From an uncultured Planctomycetaceae bacterium (lineage in GTDB: Bacteria > Planctomycetota > Planctomycetia > Planctomycetales > Planctomycetaceae), in contig CAXBME010000008.1 of assembly GCA_963976765.1 (NCBI GenBank), positions 1-64,000 of the forward strand: a DNA stretch of 64,000 nucleotides, in the 5' to 3' direction. The position numbers were made by a program, and so were the translations under genes. Positions 915 through 16,309 of the stretch are shown here, piece after piece (the stretch's first letter is position 1; every line of letters begins with the position of its first letter). The notes below the pieces were generated by a model that made no database searches, was not told the DNA's origin, and saw only the letters and a program-made list of their open reading frames with translations.

Positions 915-2222
915 ATGCCGAAACCTTTGAACTTCACGCGGCGAGATTTTCTGACAACGACCACGGCCGGCGCTGCAGCTGTTTCGTCCGGAGTCTGGAC
1001 CGGAGCCTCGCTGGCTGAATCGAAATCGGCCAACGAGAAACTGGTGATCGCCTGCGTCGGGACTGCTAACCGGGCACTGGCGGATATCGATGGAGTGGCG
1101 GGAGAGAACATCGTCGCGCTGTGCGATGTTGACTCGAACTATCTGGATCGATCGAAAGCGCGATTCAAGGATGCTCGAACTTACGCCGACTATCGCGAGA
1201 TGATCGAAGCAGAAGCCGACAAAATTGATGCGGTGGTCGTCGCGACGGCTGACCACAGTCACGCTCCGGCATCAATTCGGGCCATCCGCAAGGGGCTGCA
1301 TGTTTATTGTGAAAAACCGCTGACACACACCGTCGAAGAAGCTCGCATCATCGCCGAAGAAGCAAAGAAGTACGGCGTGGCAACACAGCTTGGAACTCAG
1401 ATTCACGCTGGCGACAACTACCGACGCGTGACTGAGATTATCCAGTCGGGAGCGATTGGCGACGTCACTGAGTGTCACGTATGGGTCAACAAAGGTTGGG
1501 GCGGTGGCGAGCTTCCCGAAAAGGCTGACGAGCCGCCGAAGAATCTGAACTGGGATCTGTGGCTCGGGCCAGCCCCTGAACGTCCCTTCGCAAACGGCCG
1601 ATATCATCCGGCTCAGTGGCGACGCTGGTGGGCGTTCGGTCAGGGCACACTGGGCGACATGGCCTGCCACTTTATGGACCTGCCGTTCTGGGCTCTCAAC
1701 CTTCGACACCCGACCAACGTCGAAGCGGAAGGACCGGAAGTTCATCCGGAAACCTGCCCGCTGGGGCTGACGGTTCGTTACAGGTTTCCGGCCCGAGACG
1801 ACATGCCGGCGGTCGACCTGACCTGGTACGACGGCAATCAGATCCCGAAAGAAATCGAAGGGCAGCGAGTCCCTGGTTCGGGCGTCATGTTCATCGGTAC
1901 CGAAGGCATGATGTACGCTAACTATGGAAGCTACAAACTCTTCCCGCAGGAAAAGTTTGCGGCCTTCGAACCGCCGGCGCCGACCATTCCCAACTCGATC
2001 GGCCATCACGCCGAATGGATCAAGGCCTGCAAAGATGGCTCGCCGACGACATGCAACTTCGACTACTCAGGCGCGTTGACTGAGTCCGTTCTGCTGGGCA
2101 ACGTTGCTTACCGCAGCGGTAAGGCTCTGGAATGGGACGCGGCCAATCTGAAGGTGACCAATACTTCCGAAGCGGACAAGTTTCTCCGTAAGGAATACCG
2201 CAAAGGTTGGGAAGTTTCGTAG
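915..2222 (+). CDS. Tat-exported Gfo/Idh/MocA family oxidoreductase
   Basis: Twin-arginine signal TRRDFL; DAVVVATADHSH and HVYCEKP motifs; WDLWLGPAP; RBS-like AAGGA upstream. Confidence 0.92.
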   Translation: MPKPLNFTRRDFLTTTTAGAAAVSSGVWTGASLAESKSANEKLVIACVGTANRALADIDGVAGENIVALCDVDSNYLDRSKARFKDARTYADYREMIEAEADKIDAVVVATADHSHAPASIRAIRKGLHVYCEKPLTHTVEEARIIAEEAKKYGVATQLGTQIHAGDNYRRVTEIIQSGAIGDVTECHVWVNKGWGGGELPEKADEPPKNLNWDLWLGPAPERPFANGRYHPAQWRRWWAFGQGTLGDMACHFMDLPFWALNLRHPTNVEAEGPEVHPETCPLGLTVRYRFPARDDMPAVDLTWYDGNQIPKEIEGQRVPGSGVMFIGTEGMMYANYGSYKLFPQEKFAAFEPPAPTIPNSIGHHAEWIKACKDGSPTTCNFDYSGALTESVLLGNVAYRSGKALEWDAANLKVTNTSEADKFLRKEYRKGWEVS

Positions 2223-2269
2223 TTTGGATTTTCGCCAGTTGAACTGGTAGCGATTTCGGCAATCATGGT

Positions 2270-2310
2270 GCAGGCCCGGTTTCGTTTTGAAGCCGGGCCT
2301 GTTTCCGTTT
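2270..2310 (+). terminator. Rho-independent terminator-like hairpin
   Basis: CAGGCCCGGTTTC-GTTTT-GAAGCCGGGCCTG stem followed by a T-rich tail, downstream of the oxidoreductase. Confidence 0.65.
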
Positions 2311-2326
2311 CTTGTGTGGTCGATCT

Positions 2327-3262
2327 GTGAACGACGCTCTCAGCGAAATTGATCATCAGCTCTTGAATGGAGTCCTCGCTGGAAGGAGTGAGGACTGGGA
2401 AGAGCTTGTTTCACAGTTTCATGGTCGCCTGCTGGCATTCGCGAGGCGACAGCTTGAGCAGAATGCTGACGCTGAAGATGCTGTTCAGGAAACTTTTCTG
2501 AGTCTCCTGAAGTCTCTCAATTTGTTTCGCGGTGAGGCGAGTCTGGAAACGTGGCTGTTTCAGCTTTTGCGTCGCCGCATTGCTGACATTTATCGTAGAG
2601 CGGGTCGGCATCAGCACGTGCAGCTGTGCCTGTCGGATTCTCAGGCAGCTGGCGACCGTCATTCACCCGCGACGCAGGCAGCGGTGAGCGTCGACCAGTC
2701 TGCAAGCTGGTACGTTCGCCAGGAAGAGCAGCAGGCGAAGGATCGAGCGGCGCTGCTGAAGGCAGTCACGTCCTCAACGGACCGACTGAAAGCAGATCGT
2801 CGATTTCAGGATCTCAAGACGTTTGACCTCCTGTTTTTTGCTCACTGGAGAAATCAGGAGATCGCTCAGGAGCTTGGACTGGAAGAAACGGCTGTCGCGG
2901 TGCTGAAGCATCGGTTCATTCAGCGAGTTGCCAGACAGCTTGATTTCAACGATGACCATCGCGAGGGGGCCGTTCAGCATTCTGACCTGTTGACCGAAGT
3001 CTGGCGGGACGGACGACCGAGCTGCCCCAAACGAACGACGCTGGGCAAGTACATTCTGGGGACGATGCCCGAAGACTGGGACGACTTCGTGACGTTTCAT
3101 GTCGATCGGCTCGGCTGTGAATTCTGTGCGGCGAACCTCGAAGACCTGACGGTCGAAATCAACGCTCCGCCCAACGAGGCAGTCGATCAGCTTCGCGGGA
3201 GAATCCTTGAATCGACGATCGGCTTTCTGAACCCACTGCTCGGCAGAAATTCTGCGAAGTAG
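2327..3262 (+). CDS. ECF (sigma-70 group 4) RNA polymerase sigma factor with C-terminal Cys/His zinc-finger-like extension
   Basis: Region 2 motifs DAEDAVQETFL and LETWLFQLLRRRIAD; region 4 NQEIAQELG; C-terminal CP..HVDRLGCEFC. The GTG start at 2327 is inferred. Confidence 0.85.
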   Translation: MNDALSEIDHQLLNGVLAGRSEDWEELVSQFHGRLLAFARRQLEQNADAEDAVQETFLSLLKSLNLFRGEASLETWLFQLLRRRIADIYRRAGRHQHVQLCLSDSQAAGDRHSPATQAAVSVDQSASWYVRQEEQQAKDRAALLKAVTSSTDRLKADRRFQDLKTFDLLFFAHWRNQEIAQELGLEETAVAVLKHRFIQRVARQLDFNDDHREGAVQHSDLLTEVWRDGRPSCPKRTTLGKYILGTMPEDWDDFVTFHVDRLGCEFCAANLEDLTVEINAPPNEAVDQLRGRILESTIGFLNPLLGRNSAK

Positions 3263-3446
3263 CTCGCGTTGTGGCGTTGATCGGGTGTCTCTGCGATAAT
3301 CCCGAGCCTCGTCCACAGCCACAAGGCATCGTCCGATTAAGCACAGGCATGCCGGTTTGCGGCAGGCGACGACGAAGCAGGATGCCGGCGTTTCACCTGG
3401 CATTACCTTCATGGTTCAAACAACGCAGAGAGCAGAGAGAAGCCGC

Positions 3447-4757
3447 ATGGCGACTGACACAACCAGCTCCACCGAAGTCGGCAGTTACTTCGTGTCCAAC
3501 TATCCGCCATTCTCGCTCTGGACCCGCGAGAACGTTCCGGAGATCCTGTCGGCACTCAACTCGCCGCCCGACGCCAGCGTGCCGATGGGACTTTACCTGC
3601 ACATTCCCTTCTGTCGAAAACGCTGCCGCTTCTGCTACTTCCGCGTTTACACCAATCAGAACGCCAAAGCGATTCAGCGTTATGTTGATTGCCTGGCGAG
3701 TGAAATCGAAATGCTTAGCCGCACTGAGGCTGTGCAGAATCGCGACCTGCAATTTGTTTATTTCGGCGGAGGCACGCCGTCCTACCTCAGCTCCCGGCAG
3801 CTTCTATTTCTGCGCGATAAGCTGGCGGAACATGTCTCCTGGGAAACCGCCGAAGAAGTCACTTTCGAGTGTGAGCCCGGAACGCTCAGTCTGGAAAAAG
3901 TTCAGACGCTGAAGGAAATCGGAATCACTCGTGTTTCGCTCGGCGTGGAAAACTTCGACGACGCGATCCTCGAAGAGAACGGTCGAGCCCACTTGTCGCC
4001 TGAAATTGAAACGGCTTACGGCTGGCTGCGGCAGGTCGGATTTCCTCAGGTCAACATTGACCTGATCGCCGGGATGATTGGCGAAACGGACGAAAACTGG
4101 CATCGCTGCATCGACAAAGCCGTCGAGATGGAGCCGGACAATATCACCATCTACCAGATGGAGTTGCCGTTCAACACGATCATTTCGAAAGAGATGAAAG
4201 AAAACGGCACAGCGTCGCCAATCGCAGACTGGGCAACGAAACGCCGCTGGGTCGATGAAGCATTCAATCGTCTGCTGGCCGAGGGGTATCAGATTTCAAG
4301 TGGCAACGAACTGGTCAGGTCGCTCGATACCGATCATTTCGTGTATCGCGATAACCTTTTCCGCGGGTCAGACCTGATTGCCGCCGGCGTGTCTTCGTTC
4401 GGGCATCTTCAGGGAGTTCATTATCAGAATCTTGACCAGATCGAGGATTACCAGACGGTGGTCGAGGCAGGCGAACTTCCGGTCAATCGAGCATTACGAC
4501 CATCGGCTCATCAGGCACTGATTCGAGAAGTCATCCTTCAACTGAAGGAAGGCCACATTTCCGGCGACACGTTTCAGCGAAAGTTCGGGGTCGATATCTT
4601 CGACGAATTCGCAGACGCCTTCCGCAATCAGCAGGCAGCAGGTTACCTGCAGGTTGAAGATGGCCACGTTCACCTCACCCGCAAAGGACTGTTGCAGGTT
4701 GACAGCCTGCTCACGGAATACTTCGAGCCTGAGCACCGTCAGGTTCGCTACACGTAA
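3447..4757 (+). CDS. HemN/coproporphyrinogen-III-oxidase-like radical SAM enzyme (class C-like)
   Basis: [17 protein letters not shown] (CxxxCxxC), [23 protein letters not shown] and a HemN-type C-terminal domain. ATG at 3447 chosen as start. Confidence 0.9.
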
Positions 4758-4783
4758 CAGGTCTCTCCCCTGGTCCTTCCTCT

Positions 4784-5335
4784 TTGACAGCACACCCCGC
4801 CGTGAATCCACTCACAGAACTTGAAGCCCTGTTGGACCTGTTTCCGGAAAGCCAGCCACTGGTTCTGCGGGCCGAACATATTCCGTCTTCGCAGACTCCC
4901 GAACCGTACAAGCAAATGCTCGTTCACGAGCACCACATGACGGTTACCATGGAGTCGTACCACGGAACCAGCGTCGATGTTCGCGTGCTGGATCAGAAGT
5001 TCGACCAGAACATGTACTGCCGGAAGATTCTGCTGCTGAAAAGTGGAACGGAAGACGTCGTTCAGTTTGGAATCGTGCGTTTCAATTTTCAGTATGTTAC
5101 ACGCGAAGTCAAAGAGCAGATTCTCAGCGGCGAAATCCCGCTTGGTCGAGTCCTGATAAACCACAACGTTTTGCGACATATCGACCTGGGAGCCATCGTC
5201 AAACTGACGGCTGGTCCCGGTCTGGCGACGCATCTACAAATGGAAGAAGGGGCGACGACCTACGGTCGCCTCGCCACAATCTTCTGCAATCACCGCCCCG
5301 CAGTTGACCTGCTGGAAGTCTCCGCGCCTCTGTAG
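4784..5335 (+). CDS. Chorismate pyruvate-lyase-like (UbiC/DUF98 fold) protein
   Basis: [28 protein letters not shown] and [12 protein letters not shown] resemble the chorismate-lyase signature (LL..GSxT..LE, R.V.L, PLG..L). Confidence 0.65.
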
Positions 5336-5346
5336 AGAATCGATAC

Positions 5347-6609
5347 ATGGTGGAATCCGCACAACCCGTTCTTGAAGAATCTTACGATGTCGTCGTCATC
5401 GGCGGTGGTCCGGCGGGAGCATCGACAGGTGCTCTGATTGCCGAACATGGATACCGCACTTTGATTCTGGAGCGATCTGAAGTTCCGCGTTTTCACGTTG
5501 GCGAGTCGCTGATTCCGGAAACGTACTGGACGCTCAAGCGTCTGGGGCTTGTGGAACGACTTCGTGAAAGTGCCTATCCGCGAAAATACAGCGTCCAGTT
5601 TTTCAGCGAAGGTCTGAAACCTTCCGCCCCGTTCTATTTCGATGAGTACAAAGACTGCGAAAGCTCTCAGACCTGGCAGGTGTGGCGAGACACTTTTGAC
5701 CAGATGCTCCTTGACCGGGCGATTGAACTCGGAGCGACGGTCCACACGAAAGCTCAGGTGATTGATGCTCACTTCGAGGGTGATCGCGCAACGGGTGTTC
5801 GAGTTAAAGTTGCCGGTCCAAACGGCGAGCGGGTCGAAAAGGATATCGCCTGCAAAGTGCTGGTTGATGCGACCGGCCAGTCCGCGTTTCTGGCCTCTCG
5901 ACTTGGCCTGAAAGAGACCGATCCTGCACTGAAGAAAGGAACCGTCTGGACGTATTTCGAGAACGCTCGACGTGACCCCGGCAAGGACGAAGGCGCGACG
6001 CTCATCATGCAAACAGCAGAAAAGCAGTCGTGGTTCTGGTTCATTCCGTTGCCTGACAACATTACCAGCATTGGCTGCACCGCCGACATGAATATTCTGT
6101 TTGCCGGAGGCTTGACCGCAGAGGAAGCGTATAACCGGGAACTCGAACGCTGTCCGGCCATGGTCGAGCGACTTGAGAACGCGACACGGGTGCGCGACTA
6201 CCTGACGACCAAAGATTACACATACTACGCTCGGCAGGGAGCAGGCCCCGGTTGGACGCTGGTCGGCGACGCGTACGGATTCATCGATCCGGTTTATTCC
6301 AGCGGGGTGTTTCTTGCATTGAAGTCTGGCGAGTTCGCTGCTGACGCCATTCACGCCGCCTTCAAGAAGAATGATTTTTCGGCGGAACAGCTCGGAAGCT
6401 GGACCAGCGAGCATGCTCGTGGCGTGGGCGTGTTCCGCAAGCTGGTCTACGCGTACTACAACCCGAACTTCAGTTTCGGGCAGTTTATGAAGATGCACCC
6501 GCAGTTCCGATCTAACGTCACCGACATTCTGATCGGCGATGTCTATAAACCTGACTTCGAAGAATGCTTCGCCGCTATGGGGGACGTGACGCCTCCGGTC
6601 GCGGAATGA
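5347..6609 (+). CDS. FAD-dependent oxidoreductase of the flavin-dependent halogenase / geranylgeranyl-reductase superfamily
   Basis: GGGPAG, RFHVGESL, YPRKY (Lys), WFWFIP (WxWxIP) and GDAYGFIDPVYSSG (FxxPxxSxG). Confidence 0.85.
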   Translation: MVESAQPVLEESYDVVVIGGGPAGASTGALIAEHGYRTLILERSEVPRFHVGESLIPETYWTLKRLGLVERLRESAYPRKYSVQFFSEGLKPSAPFYFDEYKDCESSQTWQVWRDTFDQMLLDRAIELGATVHTKAQVIDAHFEGDRATGVRVKVAGPNGERVEKDIACKVLVDATGQSAFLASRLGLKETDPALKKGTVWTYFENARRDPGKDEGATLIMQTAEKQSWFWFIPLPDNITSIGCTADMNILFAGGLTAEEAYNRELERCPAMVERLENATRVRDYLTTKDYTYYARQGAGPGWTLVGDAYGFIDPVYSSGVFLALKSGEFAADAIHAAFKKNDFSAEQLGSWTSEHARGVGVFRKLVYAYYNPNFSFGQFMKMHPQFRSNVTDILIGDVYKPDFEECFAAMGDVTPPVAE

Positions 6610-6639
6610 GGCAACGATAAGTCGACCAAGAGGAACGCC

Positions 6640-7911
6640 ATGAGAACCTGCTCGACGCGACTTCTTCTGATTCTGACGACGTTCCTTCTGCTGGATTGCT
6701 GCGTCAGTGCTCAGCAGTCAGCCGGTGATTCGACCGATGCGAAGCCAGTGCCGGAAATTGCCGGCATCACAACGGTCTGTCGGACCAACTCGCACGCAGA
6801 AGTCATCATCGGTCGGCTGGTCCGTGGCTACTCACTGAACGATCAAGGCCCTCGTCCGAACCTGAAGCTCACAACTTTGTTTACGGATCAGGTTCCCACC
6901 AGCGATATCAGCGGCGAATGGTCAACGACGTACGGAATTCCAGTTGTTAATTCCGTCACCGAGTCACTGACTCGCGGAAGGAACGCTTTGAATGTCGATG
7001 GAGTTCTGCTTGTCGCCGAACATGGCGACTACGAGACATCGGCCACCGGCAACAAGCAGTTTCCCAAGCGGCGGTTGTTTGCCGAAATCGCGAACGTTTT
7101 CGAATCGTCGAATCGTTCGGTCCCGGTTTTTTCCGACAAGCACCTGTCTGACAACTGGACGGACGCGAAATGGATTTATGACCGGGCGAAGGAGTTGAAG
7201 ATCCCGCTGATGGCCGGTTCCTCGTTGCCGGTGCTTTGGAGATACCCGCCGATTGACACTCGCCGCGATGCACCGATCGAAGAAATTGTGGCGGTTTCGT
7301 ATGGCTCTCTCGATGCTTACGGGTTCCATGCCTTGGAGATGGTGCAGTGTCTTGTTGAACGCCGAAGTGGCGGCGAAACCGGAGTACGCAGCGTCCAGTG
7401 CCTGACAGGTGACGCAGTGTGGAAAGCTCGCGACGCGGGCAAATTCAGTCCGCAACTCTTCGAAGCAACGCTGGACCGGCTGAATCAGAAACGTTGGGAG
7501 AAACGAAACAAAACGCTGGAAGAGTCCGTTCGCGAGCCGGTGCTCTGGATGGTCGAATATCGCGACGGACTACGAGCCAGCATTCTGACACTCAACGGTG
7601 CTGTCGCGGACTGGACCGCCGCCTGGAAGTACGCAGGCGAAGATCGAATTGAGTCGACGCGTTTCCAGGTTCAGGAAGAGCGACCGTACGGCCACTTCAC
7701 CTTCCTGGTAAAAGGCTTCGAAAAAATGGTACAGACCGGCAAGCCTGTCTGGCCGGTCGAACGAACTCTGCTCACCAGCGGAGTGCTCGATGCACTACTC
7801 ACATCAAAGCTGAGCGGCGGAGAGAAGCTTCCCACTCCGTGGCTCGACGTTCGATACACCAGCGACTACGACTGGCAGCAACCGCCCGAGCCCACATCAA
7901 TAAGCCAGTAG
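6640..7911 (+). CDS. Secreted conserved protein, distant Gfo/Idh/MocA-like oxidoreductase
   Basis: Signal peptide; VDGVLLVAEHGDY, PVFSDKHLS, PLMAGSSLP and YGFHALE motifs. Confidence 0.7.
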   Translation: MRTCSTRLLLILTTFLLLDCCVSAQQSAGDSTDAKPVPEIAGITTVCRTNSHAEVIIGRLVRGYSLNDQGPRPNLKLTTLFTDQVPTSDISGEWSTTYGIPVVNSVTESLTRGRNALNVDGVLLVAEHGDYETSATGNKQFPKRRLFAEIANVFESSNRSVPVFSDKHLSDNWTDAKWIYDRAKELKIPLMAGSSLPVLWRYPPIDTRRDAPIEEIVAVSYGSLDAYGFHALEMVQCLVERRSGGETGVRSVQCLTGDAVWKARDAGKFSPQLFEATLDRLNQKRWEKRNKTLEESVREPVLWMVEYRDGLRASILTLNGAVADWTAAWKYAGEDRIESTRFQVQEERPYGHFTFLVKGFEKMVQTGKPVWPVERTLLTSGVLDALLTSKLSGGEKLPTPWLDVRYTSDYDWQQPPEPTSISQ

Positions 7912-8003
7912 CCGACTTGTTTCGTCTACCGATAATTGCCGTGCAGGTTGATTCTATCTCTCTGGCTCTGTCGGACGGGCCCTGACCTACGGCAACTTCC
8001 AAT

Positions 8004-8046
8004 GGAAAACGGACAGGCCACTTGAGAAGTGGTCTGTCCGTTTTCC
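8004..8046. terminator. Bidirectional terminator hairpin between convergent genes
   Basis: GGAAAACGGACAGGCCACTT-GAG-AAGTGGTCTGTCCGTTTTCC, a 20-bp near-perfect inverted repeat. Confidence 0.8.
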
Positions 8047-8070
8047 TGAAAGCTTCATTAGCCGCACTTA

Positions 8071-8751
8071 TCAGACGTCGATGCCCAGGTCGTATTTCAA
8101 CTCGCGGAATCGTTCGATGAACTCTTCGCTCGAAGAATGGACGTGCTCGGCTTCGGTGATGAAGCGGATGTCTTCGTGGCAGTCGACGTAGTGATCGATC
8201 AGTGTGCCTTCGATGGCGTTGAGGTTCTGGCCGTAGGCGATCAGAAGTTTGTGCTCGTCGAACTGAACTTCCATCGGAATATTCGGATTCAGTACCGCGA
8301 TTCCCATGCAGCCATCGTCGAGCAGCAGGTCTTCGTAGTCCATCAGAATACTTTTCAGAACCGGCAGGTCGATTGATTCTCGAACCAGATCGTTGTGAGA
8401 ACCGTGGTTGGAGTCGTGGCTCGACTCCAGCACCACGTCAACTTCATTGCCCATCGGGTCGAGCAGATCGAAGAACAGATCAAGCACTCGTTCTCGCGAT
8501 GCCGCCGCCATCACGACTGGAATCTCGACACCGGTATCAGCGTCTTTGTAAGAATCGTGACGGAACCCGGCCTGGGGTACGATTTGAAGATCGTACGATG
8601 GCCGCACTGCATCCGTCAGCGTGAAATTTCCGTAACGGGCGATCCGTAGATGAGTCTCCAACTGGTCTTCAGTCAGGTGCTCGAAGCTGCTGGAGCCGCT
8701 CGTTTGCCCATCTCGAAAAGTATTTCTGACAAACTTCTGAATAAAACTCAT
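8071..8751 (-). CDS. Conserved hypothetical protein (acidic, ~226 aa)
   Basis: Clean ORF with genome-typical codon use. The start is placed at MSFIQKF because the upstream extension looks non-coding. Confidence 0.75.
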   Translation of the reverse strand: MSFIQKFVRNTFRDGQTSGSSSFEHLTEDQLETHLRIARYGNFTLTDAVRPSYDLQIVPQAGFRHDSYKDADTGVEIPVVMAAASRERVLDLFFDLLDPMGNEVDVVLESSHDSNHGSHNDLVRESIDLPVLKSILMDYEDLLLDDGCMGIAVLNPNIPMEVQFDEHKLLIAYGQNLNAIEGTLIDHYVDCHEDIRFITEAEHVHSSSEEFIERFRELKYDLGIDV

Positions 8752-9406: not shown

Positions 9407-10912
9407 ATGTTCCGCCATTTGTTATCTGTATCAAATCTCGTTGCTGCCATCGTTCTGTTGATGCTGGCGATTACCTCCAGCGCACAGCTATCCGCTGCGG
9501 ACGAAAACCAGGCTGACGAGAGCTGGCAGGTCATTCACCTGGCGGGACAGAGAATCGGATACGGGCGAGTCGTGATTCGAAAGGTGATTCGCGACCGTGA
9601 AACGGTTTATCTGACCGACACCGAAGAGCACGTTTCGATCCGCCGCTTTGGACAGCAACTCCGGATTCAGTCGAAGACTCACACGGAAGAATCAGCAGAC
9701 GGGCAGCTCCTGTCGTACGACTTTGAAATGAAGAACCCGCCGGCGCAGACGACTAAAAGTTCCGGGCGAGTTGAAGGCAGCAACCTGATCATCGAATCCA
9801 CGGTCGGTGGTCGAGTTCAGACAAAAAAGATTGCATGGGATTCGACTGTCAAGTCTCCGGCGTGGCAGGATCGATCGCTGAGCGATTCGCCTCTCAAGCC
9901 GGGCGAATCGCGAACGTTCAAGACGTTCATGCCCGAGTTTTCGAAGGTCGTCACGGTCAAAATCAGTGCTGAAGATTACCGGGTCGTCAAACTTCACGAT
10001 GGTTCCGAGAAGTCGCTGCTGAAGGTCAGCGTGTTTCAGTCGATTCTTCCGGGAGTCGGCATGCGTGTTTACCTGGACGATAAAGGGGAATCACTTCGGA
10101 CCGAAGCGGACCTTTTAGGAATGGTGACCTTCAGTGTGCCTCGCGAGGTCGCCCTGCAGGAAATTGCTGGCGAAGAACTGGACGTCGCCACGAATACATT
10201 GATCAGAATTGCGAATCCTCCTGTCGGACTCCACGACCGGAACACAGCGACCTACCGCATTAATACAAAAGGGCGAAATCCGGCGGAGTTTCTTCCGACG
10301 GGCGGAACCCAGACGGTCAAAAAAGTTGATAACGAAACGGCAACACTCACGGTTTCCTCTGTGCGTCCGCCAACCAACATTCAACCTTCAAGAAACGAGC
10401 AGCAGGATTTTCTTGGCGATACTCAGTTTCTTCAGGCAAACGACAGCCGCGTCCAGGAGCATGCTCGTAAAGCGACGGCGGGGTCTCTGGATCCTGGTAC
10501 GGTCGCGGTTCGAATGGAGCAATACGTTCATAAGGAATTGAAGAAGAAAAACTTTTCGACGGCGCTGGCATCAGCCGCGGAAGTCGCCAGGAGTCTTGAA
10601 GGGGATTGTACCGAGCATGCCTGTTTACTGGCGGCAATGCTGCGAGTTCAGAAAATTCCATCGCGAGTCGCTGTCGGACTGGTTTATGCCGATCGTCTCG
10701 GAGCTTTCGGCGGGCACATGTGGACCGAAGCGTGGCTCGACGGCAAATGGGTTCCGCTGGACGGGACGCTGGGCAAAGGCGGAATTGGACCGGGACATAT
10801 CAAACTGGCCGATTCCTCGCTCGCAGACGATGGTCCTGCTCCTGTGACATCGTTCGTCCCGCTGATGAACATGCTCTCGAATGTGACGATCGACATCGTG
10901 AGTACCGAGTAG
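9407..10912 (+). CDS. Secreted transglutaminase-like (Cys-His-Asp) domain protein
   Basis: Signal peptide; GDCTEHACLLAAMLR, GGHMWTEAW and WVPLD triad motifs. Confidence 0.88.
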   Translation: MFRHLLSVSNLVAAIVLLMLAITSSAQLSAADENQADESWQVIHLAGQRIGYGRVVIRKVIRDRETVYLTDTEEHVSIRRFGQQLRIQSKTHTEESADGQLLSYDFEMKNPPAQTTKSSGRVEGSNLIIESTVGGRVQTKKIAWDSTVKSPAWQDRSLSDSPLKPGESRTFKTFMPEFSKVVTVKISAEDYRVVKLHDGSEKSLLKVSVFQSILPGVGMRVYLDDKGESLRTEADLLGMVTFSVPREVALQEIAGEELDVATNTLIRIANPPVGLHDRNTATYRINTKGRNPAEFLPTGGTQTVKKVDNETATLTVSSVRPPTNIQPSRNEQQDFLGDTQFLQANDSRVQEHARKATAGSLDPGTVAVRMEQYVHKELKKKNFSTALASAAEVARSLEGDCTEHACLLAAMLRVQKIPSRVAVGLVYADRLGAFGGHMWTEAWLDGKWVPLDGTLGKGGIGPGHIKLADSSLADDGPAPVTSFVPLMNMLSNVTIDIVSTE

Positions 10913-11138: not shown

Positions 11139-12191
11139 ATGATCGCAAGTGCCAGTCTTCGGTTTGGAATGGTTGGAGCCGGCGGAATCGCTCAGGCATA
11201 CGCTCAGGCATTTCGAGACACCAGTATTGCAACTCTCGTCGCCGTTGCGGATGTTCGCGCCGAGTCAGCAGAAGCGATCGCTCAGTCGATCGGTGCGACG
11301 GCGTATGGAAGTCACGAAGAGATGGCCGAGGCCGAACAGCTCGACGCCGTCGTGGTCTGCACTCCTCCGGTCACGCATCGAAATATCTGTGCTGACCTCG
11401 CAAGCCGTGGTCTGCACGTGCTGTGCGAAAAGCCGCTGGCGATCGACTCGAACAGCGCGAGGGAAATGTTCGACGCTGCCGCGCAGAACGACGTCAAACT
11501 GACAATGGCGACGAAGTTCCGCTACGCCGCCGACGTGATCCGAGCAAAATCGATTGTCAGCTCGGGAATCCTCGGTGACGTCATCCTCTTCGAAAACTGC
11601 TTCACCGGGCATGTCGACATGTCTCAACGGTGGAATTCAAATCCGGAAATCAGCGGGGGCGGAGTTCTGATCGACAACGGAACGCACTCGGTCGACATCA
11701 TTCGATACTTCCTTGGTCCGGTCGCCGAAGTTCAGGTTGTCGAAGGTCGCCGAATTCAGAAACTGGCCGTCGAAGATACGGTCCGCATGTTTGTGCGAAC
11801 CAGCGAAGGCGTCATGGGCAGCATCGACCTTTCGTGGAGCATGAATAAAGAACAGCCGTATTACCTGAGCATTTACGGTTCGCAAGGCACGGTGCTTGTT
11901 GGCTGGAAAGAGTCAAAGTACCGCCGCTCCAGCGACACGGACTGGGTTACCTTTGGCGAAGGCTACAACAAGTTCCAGGCGTTCCGCGGCCAGATCGAAA
12001 ACTTTACTCGCGCTATTCGAGGTGAAGATAAACTTCTCGTCAGCCCGGAAGATGCACTCGCCTCGGTGGAAGTCATCGAAACAGCGTACGACTCACTTCA
12101 CAACAGCGTCTGGCAACCGGTCAAGCAGACTGCCTGGCCGCCATCGGTCGACGCCCAGAGCCTGCTGGCCGCTGCCGGACAGGTCTCGTAA
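11139..12191 (+). CDS. Gfo/Idh/MocA oxidoreductase (WlbA/WbpB-like NDP-sugar dehydrogenase)
   Basis: VGAGGIA, HVLCEKP and GGGVLIDNGTH motifs; first gene of a glycan cluster. Confidence 0.88.
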   Translation: MIASASLRFGMVGAGGIAQAYAQAFRDTSIATLVAVADVRAESAEAIAQSIGATAYGSHEEMAEAEQLDAVVVCTPPVTHRNICADLASRGLHVLCEKPLAIDSNSAREMFDAAAQNDVKLTMATKFRYAADVIRAKSIVSSGILGDVILFENCFTGHVDMSQRWNSNPEISGGGVLIDNGTHSVDIIRYFLGPVAEVQVVEGRRIQKLAVEDTVRMFVRTSEGVMGSIDLSWSMNKEQPYYLSIYGSQGTVLVGWKESKYRRSSDTDWVTFGEGYNKFQAFRGQIENFTRAIRGEDKLLVSPEDALASVEVIETAYDSLHNSVWQPVKQTAWPPSVDAQSLLAAAGQVS

Positions 12192-12276
12192 CGATCCTGA
12201 ACCTTGATCCAGACTGCCACTCAAAACCAGGCGGAACGTTGTCCTCTATGAGTCTCGACTAAGATGCCGCAGAAAC

Positions 12277-13587
12277 GTGTACGCTATGGAGTATCTCAAC
12301 TGGCTGTGGCTTCCGTTCGTGCCAGGGATCCTGGCTCTATTTCATCGGGCGGGAAAGAGCCAGTCCGGCAGGTTCCGGCGGTTCGCGTTGTCCGTTCTGC
12401 TCGTCACGTCGACGGCGTGGCTGGCCATGAGTACGGCAACGGCTTGGCGAAATTCGGTAGCTCCACGGGAGTTTGATTTTCAGCTCTACTGGATTTACGG
12501 ATCGGCGATCTACGACGGGCATTCTCCGTACAATGTTGACGCTCTGAAACAGGCAGCCGAACCGCTGAACCCTGGCGCCGACCTGATGGCTGAACTGCTG
12601 TTTCTGCAGACTCCTCCATCCGCGTTGCTGTACGGGCCCCTGGGGGCATTCGATATCCGTACGGCGTGCGTGCTCGGGTACGCATTCCTGGCCGTTGTGA
12701 TTGCTTGTGTCATCCGATTGCTGAGCCAGACATTTTTTCCGGATGACGGAATTCACGGAGCGGCATTGTGTGTGACGTTGCTCCTCTCGATGCTGCCGGC
12801 ACGTGACACAATCTGGCTGGCTCAAACCAACTTTCTGATTCTTCTATTCCTCATCCTGTTCTGGCGGTCGCCGCGCACATTTAAGGGCGGGCTGGCGCTG
12901 GGGACAGGAATTCTCGTCAAGCCAATTCTGATCATGTACCCCGCTTATCTTTTCCTGACTCGACAATGGAAGCCGCTGTCAGGAGTCGTCGCAGCCGGTG
13001 CCGGTTTGTCGGTCATCACGATCGCCGTCTCTGGAGCGAGCATGTATTTCGGATACTTCTTTGACAACCCGATCGCCCATCAGATGCCATCGACTCTGTA
13101 CTCCGAAGACATCAATCAATCCCTGCTGGCAACGATACTTCGCATCCTTGGAACCGAAATCGACAGCGGGCATCCGGCGGTGGTTCCTGCGTTTGCAACT
13201 CTGGCTTTTATTTTCACAATCGTCTCGGGATGGGCCATTCTGCGAACCTGCCGTCGCGATGACAATCTGTCACTCGCCATTTTGCTGACGCTCAGCCTGC
13301 TTCTCTTTCCGAAGACTTTGTCACACTACAGTGTGCTGTTGATTGTGCCGCTGCTGTTGCTCTGGTCGCGCCGGGAAACAGTGCCTGGCGGTGCAGCATC
13401 CACCGGGTGTCTGGTAACAGCGGTGTTTGCCTTGTGTGCGGCCGACATGGCCTTCGCCGCGAATCTATGTAGTTGGGCATTCGTCTGCGTCACTGCACTT
13501 CAAGCTCCAATCCCGGTCACCTCTGTTGTCAGAATGCCTCAGGCTGAAGTCTCTCAAGACATCGCCCTTGCCGGATCAGGAGTTTGA
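12277..13587 (+). CDS. GT87 / DUF2029 family polytopic glycosyltransferase (GT-C fold)
   Basis: Many TM segments; DFQLYW..G, PY, PP..LL..PL, AQTN, GILVKP and NQSL motifs. Confidence 0.8.
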   Translation: MYAMEYLNWLWLPFVPGILALFHRAGKSQSGRFRRFALSVLLVTSTAWLAMSTATAWRNSVAPREFDFQLYWIYGSAIYDGHSPYNVDALKQAAEPLNPGADLMAELLFLQTPPSALLYGPLGAFDIRTACVLGYAFLAVVIACVIRLLSQTFFPDDGIHGAALCVTLLLSMLPARDTIWLAQTNFLILLFLILFWRSPRTFKGGLALGTGILVKPILIMYPAYLFLTRQWKPLSGVVAAGAGLSVITIAVSGASMYFGYFFDNPIAHQMPSTLYSEDINQSLLATILRILGTEIDSGHPAVVPAFATLAFIFTIVSGWAILRTCRRDDNLSLAILLTLSLLLFPKTLSHYSVLLIVPLLLLWSRRETVPGGAASTGCLVTAVFALCAADMAFAANLCSWAFVCVTALQAPIPVTSVVRMPQAEVSQDIALAGSGV

Positions 13588-13608
13588 ACGTTGGAAGTTC
13601 CCTCCATA

Positions 13609-14193
13609 ATGAAAAGTCGCACCGGTGACGCTGAGTATGTTCCGGTCACCAATTCTTCTCAGGCACAGAATCAAACTACGAATGACGATACTTCTCGCTT
13701 TGGCTCAATCAGTCAAATCAACCTGACGAAAGCCTTTCCATCGCTACTTGAGCACGTACGCGTCAACTATGCGCAGTTGACACGCTTCGTTCTTTTTGGC
13801 TGTGTGGGGCTCAGCGGAATGGTCGTCGACCTGGGAGTCCTGTATGTCCTTTTTCCATTCACCGGTCTGGCGGCTGGTCGAGCGGTGGCGATTGCCGTGG
13901 CGATGACGTGGAATTTCGTCTGCAATCGGGTCATTACATTTCAGAGCGACACAACGCTGTCTCCCTGGAGCCAGTACTGGCGATACGTTGCAAGCTGCAG
14001 CGTTGGCGCGGCCATTAACTGGTCAACTTCTCTGGCGCTGGTGTCGTGTATTGCCGTTTTTCGCGAGCACGTTCTGCTGAGTGCCGTCGCGGGTGTACTG
14101 GCAGGCTTTCTGCTGAACTTTCAACTCTGCAGCCGATGGGTCTTTCACGAGCACTCTGTCCGGGAAACATCAGTCACCAGGCAGTCGGTGTAA
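13609..14193 (+). CDS. GtrA family lipid-linked sugar flippase
   Basis: RFVLFGCVGLSGMVVD, WNFVCNRVITF and LNFQLCSRWVF motifs; four TM helices. Confidence 0.88.
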   Translation: MKSRTGDAEYVPVTNSSQAQNQTTNDDTSRFGSISQINLTKAFPSLLEHVRVNYAQLTRFVLFGCVGLSGMVVDLGVLYVLFPFTGLAAGRAVAIAVAMTWNFVCNRVITFQSDTTLSPWSQYWRYVASCSVGAAINWSTSLALVSCIAVFREHVLLSAVAGVLAGFLLNFQLCSRWVFHEHSVRETSVTRQSV

Positions 14194-14427
14194 ACCGATC
14201 GTCCGGACAATCCCGAATGTCCAGCCTGGCCGCTTCCAGAATGCACCGCGTGACTGCCCGATTTGCTCGTCTGACACTCCAGACTGGCGGTAAGTAAGAG
14301 TTGGATAAGACTCATCTCTGCCCGCCGTTGGTTCATCAATGTTGGGTTCTTTGAGTCGACAAACTGCCGGTTAACCCGGGTCAGTTACTTCTTCGAAACC
14401 ACACTCACTCACCGGAGTAAAGTATCA

Positions 14428-15090
14428 ATGGCCGCTCGAGTTCACAGCACCGCCATTGTCGAAGACGACGTTCGAATCGGCGACAGGACGTCGATCTGGG
14501 ACAACGTTCATATTCGCCACGATTCTGAGATTGGCGAAGAGTGCATCGTTGGCGAGAAAACGTACATCGCCTATGGCGTCAAAATCGGCGACCGCGTGAA
14601 GATCAACGCGATGGTCTATGTCTGCAACGCGGTCACGATCGAAGACGGAGTCATGATCAGCGCGGGCACCATCTTTACCAATGATCGATTTCCGCGAGCG
14701 ACGACTCCGGATCTGAAGCAACTGCGTGACTCGGCGCCGGATGAGCACACGCTACCGACCCTTGTCCGCGAGGGCGCGACCATCGGAGCGGGAGCGACTA
14801 TCGGCAACGACCTGACGATCGGTCGGTTTGCGATGGTCGGCATGGGCTCGGTCGTGACGAAGTCGGTGCCTGACTTTCATCTGGTGCTGGGGTCGCCGGC
14901 CCGTTCCATTGGAGCGGTCTGCCGTTGCGGCCAGATGATCGCCCGGTTCCCGGAGGATCGGTCGGCAAACTTCGCCTACCTGTGTTGCCCCGAGTGCGAA
15001 CGTGAATATTCGATCCACGACGGTGAAGTCAGTGAATCGCTGCTGCATGTTCTCTCGATGGCCGATACCGAAGCTCTTGCCGAAGTGTAG
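14428..15090 (+). CDS. Hexapeptide-repeat sugar N-acetyltransferase (WbpD/WlbB-like) with C-terminal Cys cluster
   Basis: VHSTAIVE, left-handed beta-helix repeats, FTNDRFPR, GSPAR, CRCG..CPEC. Confidence 0.9.
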   Translation: MAARVHSTAIVEDDVRIGDRTSIWDNVHIRHDSEIGEECIVGEKTYIAYGVKIGDRVKINAMVYVCNAVTIEDGVMISAGTIFTNDRFPRATTPDLKQLRDSAPDEHTLPTLVREGATIGAGATIGNDLTIGRFAMVGMGSVVTKSVPDFHLVLGSPARSIGAVCRCGQMIARFPEDRSANFAYLCCPECEREYSIHDGEVSESLLHVLSMADTEALAEV

Positions 15091-15097
15091 GTAGACG

Positions 15098-16309
15098 ATG
15101 CTCCGCCACATTCGAATTCTCGCCGGCTCGCTGAAGCCAACGGCCGGAAGCCATATCTACAATCGAGAACTGATCCGCCGGCTTGCCTCGCGAGGAAACC
15201 GTGTCTCGGTGGTCAGCTTCGACGATGGCGGTGAAGTCAAGGATGGTAAAGACTGGGGCGACGTTGAGTTCACGTGTCTGCCACGACGGGACTGGAACTC
15301 GATTCCCGGAGCATGGCGATTCGCGGCAACGCTTCAGGGACTCCAGTCACGACGCGATGTCGCATCCGCCACGCTCGACGAACCGGATGTTGTCATCGCC
15401 ACCGAGCATCTGTTTCTGAAAGCACATGCTCGCCGATTTCCACGGACTCCCTGGCTGTATCTGGCGCATTCGCTGGTGATCGCTCACGAAATCGACAGCT
15501 ACGGAATGACCGGGCTTCAGCAGCGTCTCACTCGAAACTTCTACATCAAGCAACAGCTGTGGGCTCTGCGTCACTCGTCAACGATTGTCCGATTCAACCA
15601 GTCGGCGACGAATGCCCTGCTGGATTTCTATGGAGCCGATTCGTTGCAGGCTCCGATTCTGATTAATCCGACGGGGATCGATGCTCCAGACTCGCCGCCT
15701 GGGGAACGACATAATGACACAGAAAGCCCGCTCCGTCTGCTTTTCGTCGGGCGTCTGATCGCGTCAAAGAATCTGAAGTTTGTTCTTCGCGCGCTGGCAG
15801 ATTTTCGCGGTGCCAACTGGACTCTTGACGTCGTTGGAGACGGTCCTGAGCTGAAAGACTGCCGGCAACTGCTGCGGGAGTTGCAGCTTGCCTCGCAGGT
15901 CACGCTGCACGGACATCAGTCGAATACTGCCGAGTGGTACAGCAACGCCGACCTGCTGCTGTTTCCGTCGAAGCTTGAGAATATGCCGCTGGTACTTCTG
16001 GAATCAATGGCTCACGGCACGCCTGCACTCGTCATCCGCGAAGACGGTTTGAACTACCGGGTTCCTTTTTCGGAAGTCATCGAAGACGACGTCACCGGAC
16101 TGATCGCTCGCGACGAAAGCGACTTCGCCCACCGTCTGGGTGACATTCTTGCGAAGCCGGAAAAACTGACTGGTCTCTCGTCCAATGCTCAGTCGCAGGT
16201 GCGAGAACATTACACCTGGGACGAGCATCTGAACTGCTTTGACAGGCACATCGACAAACTGCTCGGAACCACGTCGATCCCGCCGTCGCCTGTCTCTGTT
16301 CCGTGTTGA
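15098..16309 (+). CDS. Glycosyltransferase family 4
   Basis: LLFVGRLIASKN, VVGDGP and ENMPLVLLESMAHGTP (ExxxxxxxE) motifs. Confidence 0.92.
   Translation: MLRHIRILAGSLKPTAGSHIYNRELIRRLASRGNRVSVVSFDDGGEVKDGKDWGDVEFTCLPRRDWNSIPGAWRFAATLQGLQSRRDVASATLDEPDVVIATEHLFLKAHARRFPRTPWLYLAHSLVIAHEIDSYGMTGLQQRLTRNFYIKQQLWALRHSSTIVRFNQSATNALLDFYGADSLQAPILINPTGIDAPDSPPGERHNDTESPLRLLFVGRLIASKNLKFVLRALADFRGANWTLDVVGDGPELKDCRQLLRELQLASQVTLHGHQSNTAEWYSNADLLLFPSKLENMPLVLLESMAHGTPALVIREDGLNYRVPFSEVIEDDVTGLIARDESDFAHRLGDILAKPEKLTGLSSNAQSQVREHYTWDEHLNCFDRHIDKLLGTTSIPPSPVSVPC

Follow-up and report, generated by a model that had tools for sequence, protein, structure and literature searches.

A HemN-like radical SAM, chorismate-lyase-like and flavin halogenase-like gene trio of Planctomycetota as a candidate part of a larger aromatic pathway

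Adjacent genes for a chorismate lyase and a halogenase, baaA/baaB, were proposed in 2019, without genetic proof, to make 3,5-dibromo-p-anisic acid in Planctomycetales strain 10988; about 44% similarity of the halogenase to Bmp5 was reported, and the term "radical SAM" is absent from the main text of that preprint (bioRxiv 10.1101/723874). The bmp system of Pseudoalteromonas (Bmp5/Bmp6) follows the same logic of a chorismate lyase with a flavin halogenase. Here we describe a related locus in an uncultured Planctomycetaceae bacterium (assembly GCA_963976765.1), situated in a window of 64,000 nucleotides (contig C8, positions 1-64000) of an 8.57-Mb genome; positions given without a contig refer to this window. 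Three genes on the + strand encode an enzyme of the radical S-adenosylmethionine (SAM) type (rSAM; 3447-4757, 436 aa), a chorismate-lyase-like protein (open reading frame 4784-5335, 183 aa, from a TTG codon) and a flavin halogenase-like enzyme (5347-6609, 420 aa). A sequence-only reading of the window had treated them as a self-contained cassette for aromatic or quinone tailoring. We propose, with a probability of about 0.5, that the trio is the ring-supply and tailoring part of a larger gene set, which would make a halogenated, C-methylated, reduced and exported hydroxybenzyl compound derived from 4-hydroxybenzoate (4-HB).

The open reading frames agree with the co-directional arrangement and the gaps of 26 and 11 bp that had been read from the sequence. 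The lyase gene most likely begins at GTG 4802 rather than at TTG 4784 (4802-5335, 177 aa), because close relatives and the Atlas record begin there, in which case its gap to the rSAM gene becomes 44 bp. As with baaA/baaB, a lyase gene lies beside a halogenase gene (here across the 11-bp gap) in a planctomycete, and there was, as predicted, no polyketide synthase or nonribosomal peptide synthetase core among the conserved neighbors. The two loci, compared by description only, differ in that the halogenase is Bmp5-like there and FasV/PltA-like here, and in that no EhpF-like pair is described in the text available for baa. Unlike bmp, this locus has no P450 coupling enzyme among its conserved neighbors, and rSAM and reductase genes are added.

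The flavin enzyme matched Pfam Trp_halogenase and carries each of the motifs previously noted in it: GGGPAG at residue 19, YPRKY at 77 (with K80), WFWFIP at 229 and FIDPVYSSG at 312. Among 70 orthologues, GxGxxG was present in 70, K80 in 69, WxWxIP in 69 and FxxPxxSxG in 68, and K80 aligned with the lysine of the PltA motif FPKKF. The available text of a review of such enzymes lists GxGxxG, a catalytic Lys, WxWxIP and Fx.Px.Sx.G as halogenase motifs and describes Bmp5 as lacking WxWxIP (PMC8407142). The best phmmer matches were 8zop (FasV; E 2e-68) and PltA (2e-55), and the closest solved relatives were FasV, PltA, Mpy16, CndH, ChlB4 and Bmp2. The model fold ranked the same way, with Z scores of 49.7 for FasV, 48.1 for Bmp2 and 46.7 for PltA; the top nine rows (Z 43.8-49.7) comprised seven entries titled as halogenases, FasV and one unnamed flavoprotein. 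The competing identity of a geranylgeranyl reductase was rejected, with a TIGR02032 score of 128.6 against a cut-off of 158.8 and a best reductase-like Z of 34.5 against 49.7. Judged by this fold ranking and by the conserved motifs, WxWxIP included, the enzyme is halogenase-like and of the FasV/Bmp2/PltA type rather than the Bmp5 type, so that the suggested analogy with bmp holds for the pairing of lyase and halogenase and fails for the likeness to Bmp5. The window enzyme shares its fold (Z 44-50), its lysine position and three motifs with FasV (8zop), Bmp2, PltA, Mpy16, ChlB4 and CndH; unlike them, it has no acyl or peptidyl carrier protein (ACP/PCP) and no megasynthase among its conserved neighbors, and it is single-copy and phylum-wide.

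For the middle protein, Pfam gave no match at E ≤ 0.1 and NCBIfam gave none, so that the Chor_lyase/DUF98 families were not detected by score, and among its Atlas neighbors these families occurred in only 11-19% of members. Structure was more informative. The AlphaFold (AF2) model (pLDDT 93) matched AF1396/DUF98 (PDB 2nwi) with Z 16.9 and a root-mean-square deviation (rmsd) of 1.9 over 142 residues, and UbiC (1g81) with Z 12.3 and rmsd 2.9 over 140; a Foldseek match had E 2e-8, and the family profile matched 2nwi at E 3e-6. All 12 invariant columns of 32 family members were identical in E. coli (K-12) UbiC. Met34, Arg76, Gly90, Leu114 and Glu155 of UbiC all have identical equivalents in the window protein, those of Met, Arg and Glu being invariant in the 32 rows and that of Leu present in at least 90%, in an alignment made at low identity (profile-to-sequence hhalign E 1.7e-5). 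In UbiC, Met34, Arg76, Leu114 and Glu155 bind 4-HB, according to the text available for PMC7879144. The DUF98/UbiC fold and these residues uphold the assignment of the middle gene to the chorismate lyases, and the protein is likely a 4-hydroxybenzoate synthase, a prediction drawn from its model and residues. Its fold is that of E. coli UbiC and the DUF98 or Rv2949c-like proteins (AF1396); it differs from them in having only 16-20% structural identity to them, below Pfam detection, and ubiA is not a conserved neighbor here.

The rSAM matched Pfam Radical_SAM (E 7e-23) and HemN_C, with a CxxxCxxC cluster at residue 56 and GGGTP at 107. It scored below every NCBIfam cut-off, including those for HutW (TIGR04107; 201 of 400 bits), HemN (TIGR00538; 186 of 325) and HemW (TIGR00539; 160 of 205). 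A motif scan that recovered RNFQGY in E. coli HemN found neither this motif nor the HemW motif HNxxYW in the window protein, in line with the sequence-only reading. Residues Y50, H52, C56, C60, C63, GGGT, E141, R180 and D205 were invariant in 24 of 24 rows, and these include the equivalents of HemN Y56, H58, E145, R184 and D209, which we take to be SAM-site residues; the position of HemN Q172 is an invariant Glu in this clade. Identity was 26% to both E. coli HemN and HemW and 49-70% within the clade. In a quick tree of 53 rows, which included HemN and HemW and no MenK, the window protein and 17 orthologues formed a clade (SH-aLRT 96) that excluded E. coli HemN and HemW and in which acidobacterial and planctomycete rows interleaved. 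Scores, motifs and tree together place it among the HemN-like (class C-type) radical SAM enzymes, outside both HemN and HemW. It shares CxxxCxxC, GGGTP, HemN_C and the SAM-site residues with known class C enzymes (NocN/NosN, ChuW/HutW, MenK/MqnK, C10P, Jaw5; the NocN match had E 7e-26), from which its own clade and the Glu at HemN Q172 set it apart. The accessible part of one study describes a SAM-methylene radical, shared by HemN-like enzymes, that serves methylation or cyclopropanation, and identifies HNxxYW as the motif of the heme chaperone HemW (PMC10114718); the available text of PMC13459092 holds nothing on the present clade. By analogy, we infer that the window enzyme would transfer a one-carbon (methyl) unit.

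It could be argued that this enzyme acts in heme or menaquinone metabolism in the manner of HemN, HemW, ChuW or MenK, with incidental neighbors, since its top NCBIfam scores were to HutW, HemN and STM4012 and since MenK and MqnK are described as HemN-like quinone methylases (PMC10114718, in the part available). We regard this as highly improbable: every score was below its cut-off, a separate HemW with HNQVYW is encoded on contig C2 of the same genome, no heme-utilization genes occurred among the annotated conserved neighbors, and the rSAM co-occurs in 57 of 57 genomes with an EhpF-like gene and is found fused to pathway enzymes (see below). The HemN and HemW roles in particular are largely refuted by scores, motifs and clade. 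A second, paralogous rSAM clade, about 40% identical, was seen at L178:8323-10845, L179:8018-9367 and L202:9342-10664; the L178 copy is followed directly by genes for a halogenase-like protein and a B12-binding rSAM, while two proteins related to this clade (P0134, P0140) are fused to an AMP-ligase. This clade is possibly a secondary-metabolite offshoot.

To assess co-occurrence, each protein was searched in 301 genomes of Planctomycetota. The rSAM was present in 57 genomes, all at E ≤ 6e-142. The halogenase gave 79 hits at E ≤ 1e-50, 56 of them at E ≤ 1e-80, all 56 lying inside the 57 rSAM genomes, and the sole rSAM genome without it is an 87%-complete draft. The lyase was detected in 43 genomes, again all within the 57. 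A lyase profile search found none in the 14 remaining pathway genomes (0/14), while in G349 this profile gave a match at 2e-44; because these 14 genomes are 83-94% complete, we speak of the lyase as "not found" rather than "absent." The co-occurrence suspected from the window alone is thus borne out (halogenase in 56 and lyase in 43 of 57), and every one of the 16 genomes from the window's own family carries all three genes. The rSAM and lyase genes were adjacent in 28 of the 43 lyase-bearing genomes, and the intact rSAM-lyase-halogenase order recurred in 22 of them. In the lyase-less genomes, rSAM and halogenase genes were adjacent in 8 of 14 and within 11 kb in 11. This recurrence of the trio in 22 of 43 lyase genomes, together with a recorded fusion of rSAM and lyase in one protein, makes the linkage of the three genes more than a chance one. 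A plasmid search returned only two matches, at 26-27% identity. The points on which the earlier prediction could have failed went in its favor: the genes co-occur, the middle protein has the lyase fold, and the rSAM does not group with HemN or HemW.

The notion of a self-contained three-gene cassette did not survive, however, with the lyase not found in 14 of 57 rSAM genomes and with an EhpF-like gene (57/57) and a GT4 glycosyltransferase (56/56 tested) tracking the rSAM more tightly. This bears on the alternative that the trio stands alone and yields a free benzoate carrying halogen or methyl groups, for example 3,5-dibromo-p-anisic acid, on the model of baaAB. The adjacent lyase and halogenase proposed for that compound in strain 10988 speak for it, as do two genomes in which lyase and halogenase genes are adjacent without the rSAM; yet the baa proposal comes, in the accessible text of the preprint, without a mutant and with no intermediates detected (bioRxiv 10.1101/723874). 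The lyase is moreover the most dispensable member of the trio, and a larger route might give off free dibromo-anisate as a shunt product. We consider the stand-alone alternative improbable.

The larger set is anchored by the EhpF-like adenylating enzyme, whose matches at E ≤ 1e-105 fell in all 57 rSAM genomes and nowhere else in the sample, 18 further genomes giving only E ≥ 1e-51; it was also found in four of five non-planctomycete genomes tested. Its PDB match is EhpF (3l2k/3hgu; E 5e-38), and it sits before an Aldedh-family gene, an order similar to that of the EhpF/GriC-GriD type; in this genome it lies outside the window (G000 C8:205027-207623). EhpF/GriC-GriD pairs act as aryl-acid reductases, and the known examples serve phenazine and grixazone antibiotics. 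A literature search on this reductase role found nothing useful. Two EhpF-like copies per genome, with about 60% and 67-69% identity to the copy of this genome, were observed in L203 (G302 C73) and in G183, G216, G232, G248 and G263.

The GT4 glycosyltransferase was found in 56 of 56 pathway-positive and 8 of 24 pathway-negative genomes tested. The eight genomes with GT4 and without the rSAM/halogenase/EhpF core (G006, G007, G009, G016, G050, G101, G245 and G289) include seven with at least 14 matches to β-propellers; both GT4 and the propellers may form part of a system broader than the aromatic core. The linked GT4 of this genome (L159:1119-2429, i.e., G000 C15:164018-165328) has an N-terminal CGSC, unusual for a glycosyltransferase, and CxxC or CGSC was seen in 12 of 12 members of the GT4 cluster; the pathway-linked GT4 may bind metal.

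A PaaK-like ligase was detected in 45 of 56 pathway-positive versus 4 of 24 negative genomes, with a match in all 42 other lyase-bearing genomes. In the lyase-less genomes, 11 of 14 had no PaaK match and three had only matches of 40-42% identity, like those of the negatives. Presence thus follows a nested pattern, with the lyase inside PaaK and PaaK inside the core, which is what one would expect of a lyase whose acid product cells could alternatively take up from outside. In loci of distant families, these genes form a compact cluster comprising DUF3311 and an SSF symporter, the EhpF-like enzyme and its Aldedh-family partner, an iron-containing alcohol dehydrogenase (Fe-ADH), a pyrroloquinoline quinone (PQQ)-like propeller, the rSAM, lyase and halogenase, GT4, a 4HBT thioesterase, a small membrane protein, the PaaK-like ligase, an ATP-binding cassette (ABC) ATPase and an FtsX permease. 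In this genome each of them has an unambiguous best-scoring orthologue, and these lie scattered over contigs C2, C8, C11, C12, C15, C16 and C24. Such a composition, with TonB/SSF uptake genes, PaaK-like ligase, thioesterase, Aldedh and Fe-ADH, would also suit a cluster that degrades or salvages aromatic acids taken up from outside. The lyase, halogenase, class C rSAM, glycosyltransferase and exporter are biosynthetic, however, and no ring-cleavage genes were present among the annotated conserved neighbors, making catabolism a very improbable explanation.

The rSAM also occurred in 24 of 101 genomes of Acidobacteriota. Sixteen acidobacterial loci from these 24 contained the halogenase in 13, Fe-ADH in 14, thioesterase in 13, GT4 in 13, SSF in 11 and FtsX in 10, with the lyase in only two; a TonB-receptor-like gene was present in 11 of the 16, one confirmed by Pfam. 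A scan of 13 long proteins among 150 listed representatives revealed fusions, each a single record, of rSAM with lyase (P0126), of Fe-ADH with rSAM (P0125) and of AMP-ligase with the rSAM paralogue (P0134, P0140). Lyase and halogenase share one open frame with a low-complexity linker in L067, which is possibly the result of a lost stop.

Fold and residues identify the genes, and co-occurrence, clustering and fusions connect them; from this we infer the reactions, their order and the product as follows. The lyase would convert chorismate to 4-HB, while cells without it could take up this acid, or an intermediate further along, by way of the SSF symporter or TonB receptor. The PaaK-like ligase would activate 4-HB, the 4HBT-family thioesterase releasing or editing the thioester; the flavin enzyme would halogenate ortho to the phenol, and the rSAM would add a SAM-derived carbon at an sp2 ring position. 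This scheme leaves the order of activation, halogenation and C-methylation free. The EhpF-like and Aldedh-like pair would then reduce the carboxyl to the aldehyde and Fe-ADH would yield the alcohol, after which GT4 would glycosylate the product and the ABC/FtsX system export it to the envelope, where PQQ-like β-propellers may bind or use it. In many planctomycetes, a prenyl synthase and squalene-hopene cyclase (SHC)-like module may attach and cyclize an isoprenoid. The quinone head group entertained by the sequence-only reading is unlikely in the case of menaquinone, because the genome has two separate VitK2_biosynth (MqnA/MqnD-family) genes (G000 C11:54723-55499 and C13:161100-161834), indicative of the futalosine menaquinone route.

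Most clusters contain one to four PQQ-like propeller genes, and a propeller orthologue was present in 15 of the 16 acidobacterial loci. PQQ_2 matches had a median of 23 across the 35 pathway genomes counted and of 5 across 45 without the pathway; 33 of the former and 10 of the latter reached 10 or more. At most 30 candidates were scored per genome, and genome size and kinship confound these counts. The enrichment is suggestive only as a clue to the end use of the product. It nevertheless raises the alternative that the product is a diffusible quinone or catechol redox cofactor for the propellers, with the flavin enzyme introducing a hydroxyl group, or a halogen that does not persist. Uptake by TonB and export by ABC would suit a shared, vitamin-like molecule, and the single-copy, phylum-wide spread resembles primary rather than secondary metabolism, but the halogenase motifs are under strong selection and the propeller-rich, pathway-negative genomes argue the other way. 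A twin-arginine-like pattern in this genome's copy of the linked propeller had suggested a conserved twin-arginine translocation (Tat) signal, which was rejected when the pattern appeared in 0 of 57 relatives. A redox cofactor is unlikely on this balance, though it deserves to be kept in mind.

A second conserved module (e.g., L165:8278-17457, L168:3649-11699 and L174:3740-13924) comprises a cysteine desulfurase, a GcvH-like carrier, a CobW-like GTPase, a 2x[4Fe-4S] protein and a second rSAM, together with a DUF116-polyprenyl synthase, an alpha/alpha-toroid protein and an SHC-like cyclase; most of its genes were found in this genome (the desulfurase was not searched). This combination hints, from the gene families, at sulfur or metal handling on a terpenoid. 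The prenyl synthase, toroid and cyclase genes are physically linked to pathway genes in eight loci (L045, L046, L051, L132, L165, L168, L172 and L180), and SHC-like matches came from 43 of the 56 genomes with the pathway and from 4 of the 24 without. One may therefore ask whether the ring serves chiefly as head group in a meroterpenoid lipid, prenylated and cyclized by these three enzymes. Merosterol-like logic offers a model for this. Planctomycete SHC-like cyclases are described as keeping their catalytic residues and probably using a non-squalene precursor, with the product given as unknown in the text available (PMC7306690). Against this alternative, 13 of 56 pathway genomes, including G118, G136 and G172 (99-100% complete), had no SHC-like match at E ≤ 1e-40, four pathway-negative genomes carry the cyclase, and neither it nor the other module genes appeared in any of the 16 acidobacterial loci. 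The SHC-like module is thus associated with the pathway but separable from it, and a mainly meroterpenoid product seems to us quite unlikely. The toroid protein had no PDB sequence match, so that a likeness to MstE is not shown.

Several observations count against the proposed hydroxybenzyl pathway. The fold search ties UbiC with the effector (UTRA) domains of GntR regulators (Z about 11-13). We rejected a UTRA identity for what is a lone 177-aa domain without a DNA-binding part and preferred the UbiC type because its 12 invariant columns match E. coli UbiC. Relatives of the halogenase fold include the non-halogenating QhpG, LodB and GoxB (NCBIfam matches), and FasV, the closest structure, acts on free phenols, which gives no reason to expect a tethered substrate. 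In 11 genomes the halogenase and rSAM are retained although no PaaK match was obtained, which weakens the idea that the halogenase needs a PaaK thioester; the thioester is accordingly not strictly required. The trio is intact in just 3 of the 16 genomes of the window's own family, and the propeller-rich genomes without the pathway belong here as well. Finally, the orthology cut-offs were chosen after the gaps in the lists of scores had been inspected, and related genomes do not count as independent samples.

Each part is a known kind of enzyme; the assembly and its product are undescribed in the literature searched, where no description of the whole gene set was found (most subscription papers fell outside its coverage). 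With the halogenase mostly single-copy and present in all 16 family genomes, and with the rSAM in about a fifth of two phyla, the set looks like core metabolism and not like an antibiotic cluster, and the biosynthesis of a chorismate-derived halo-aromatic is here probably core rather than secondary. Should this reading be correct, an organohalogen would be a routine product of abundant bacteria of soil, sediment and the sea. The dibromo-anisic acid described for strain 10988 may have arisen as a by-product of the larger route. The gene list makes it possible to test the role of an uncharacterized HemN-like clade, the ligand of many planctomycete PQQ-like propellers, and whether the product of the SHC-like cyclase bears an aromatic head. 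More speculatively, and unlikely as a whole, Planctomycetota and Acidobacteriota might share a vitamin-like halogenated, radical-methylated hydroxybenzyl or quinone compound, made or imported (TonB, SSF), that serves as ligand or cofactor of their expanded, orphan PQQ-like propellers and, in many planctomycetes, is joined to the SHC-like product.

Around the trio, a scan of Rfam over window positions 2200-8200 gave no matches (0), and promoter and terminator scans gave counts at the level of shuffled sequence (2 versus 2.0 and 5 versus 6.4). A fourth co-directional gene, 30 bp past the halogenase (6640-7911, +), encodes a 423-aa protein with a signal-peptide-like start and no Pfam or NCBIfam match; because neither a paralogue in the genome nor a match among the retrieved loci was found, it was excluded from the gene set. 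Upstream, 184 bp from the rSAM gene and not among the conserved neighbors, lies a gene for an extracytoplasmic function (ECF) sigma factor (2312-3262, +), whose C-terminal extension with CEFC (CxxC) resembles a fused zinc-finger anti-sigma domain. Farther downstream are a transglutaminase-like gene with a signal-peptide-like start (9407-10912, +; Pfam Transglut_core E 1e-17) and a run of genes at 11139-16309 (+) that, judged by translations alone, resembles an envelope-glycan-modification set, with Gfo/Idh/MocA, membrane protein, GtrA-like, acetyltransferase-like and glycosyltransferase-like members.

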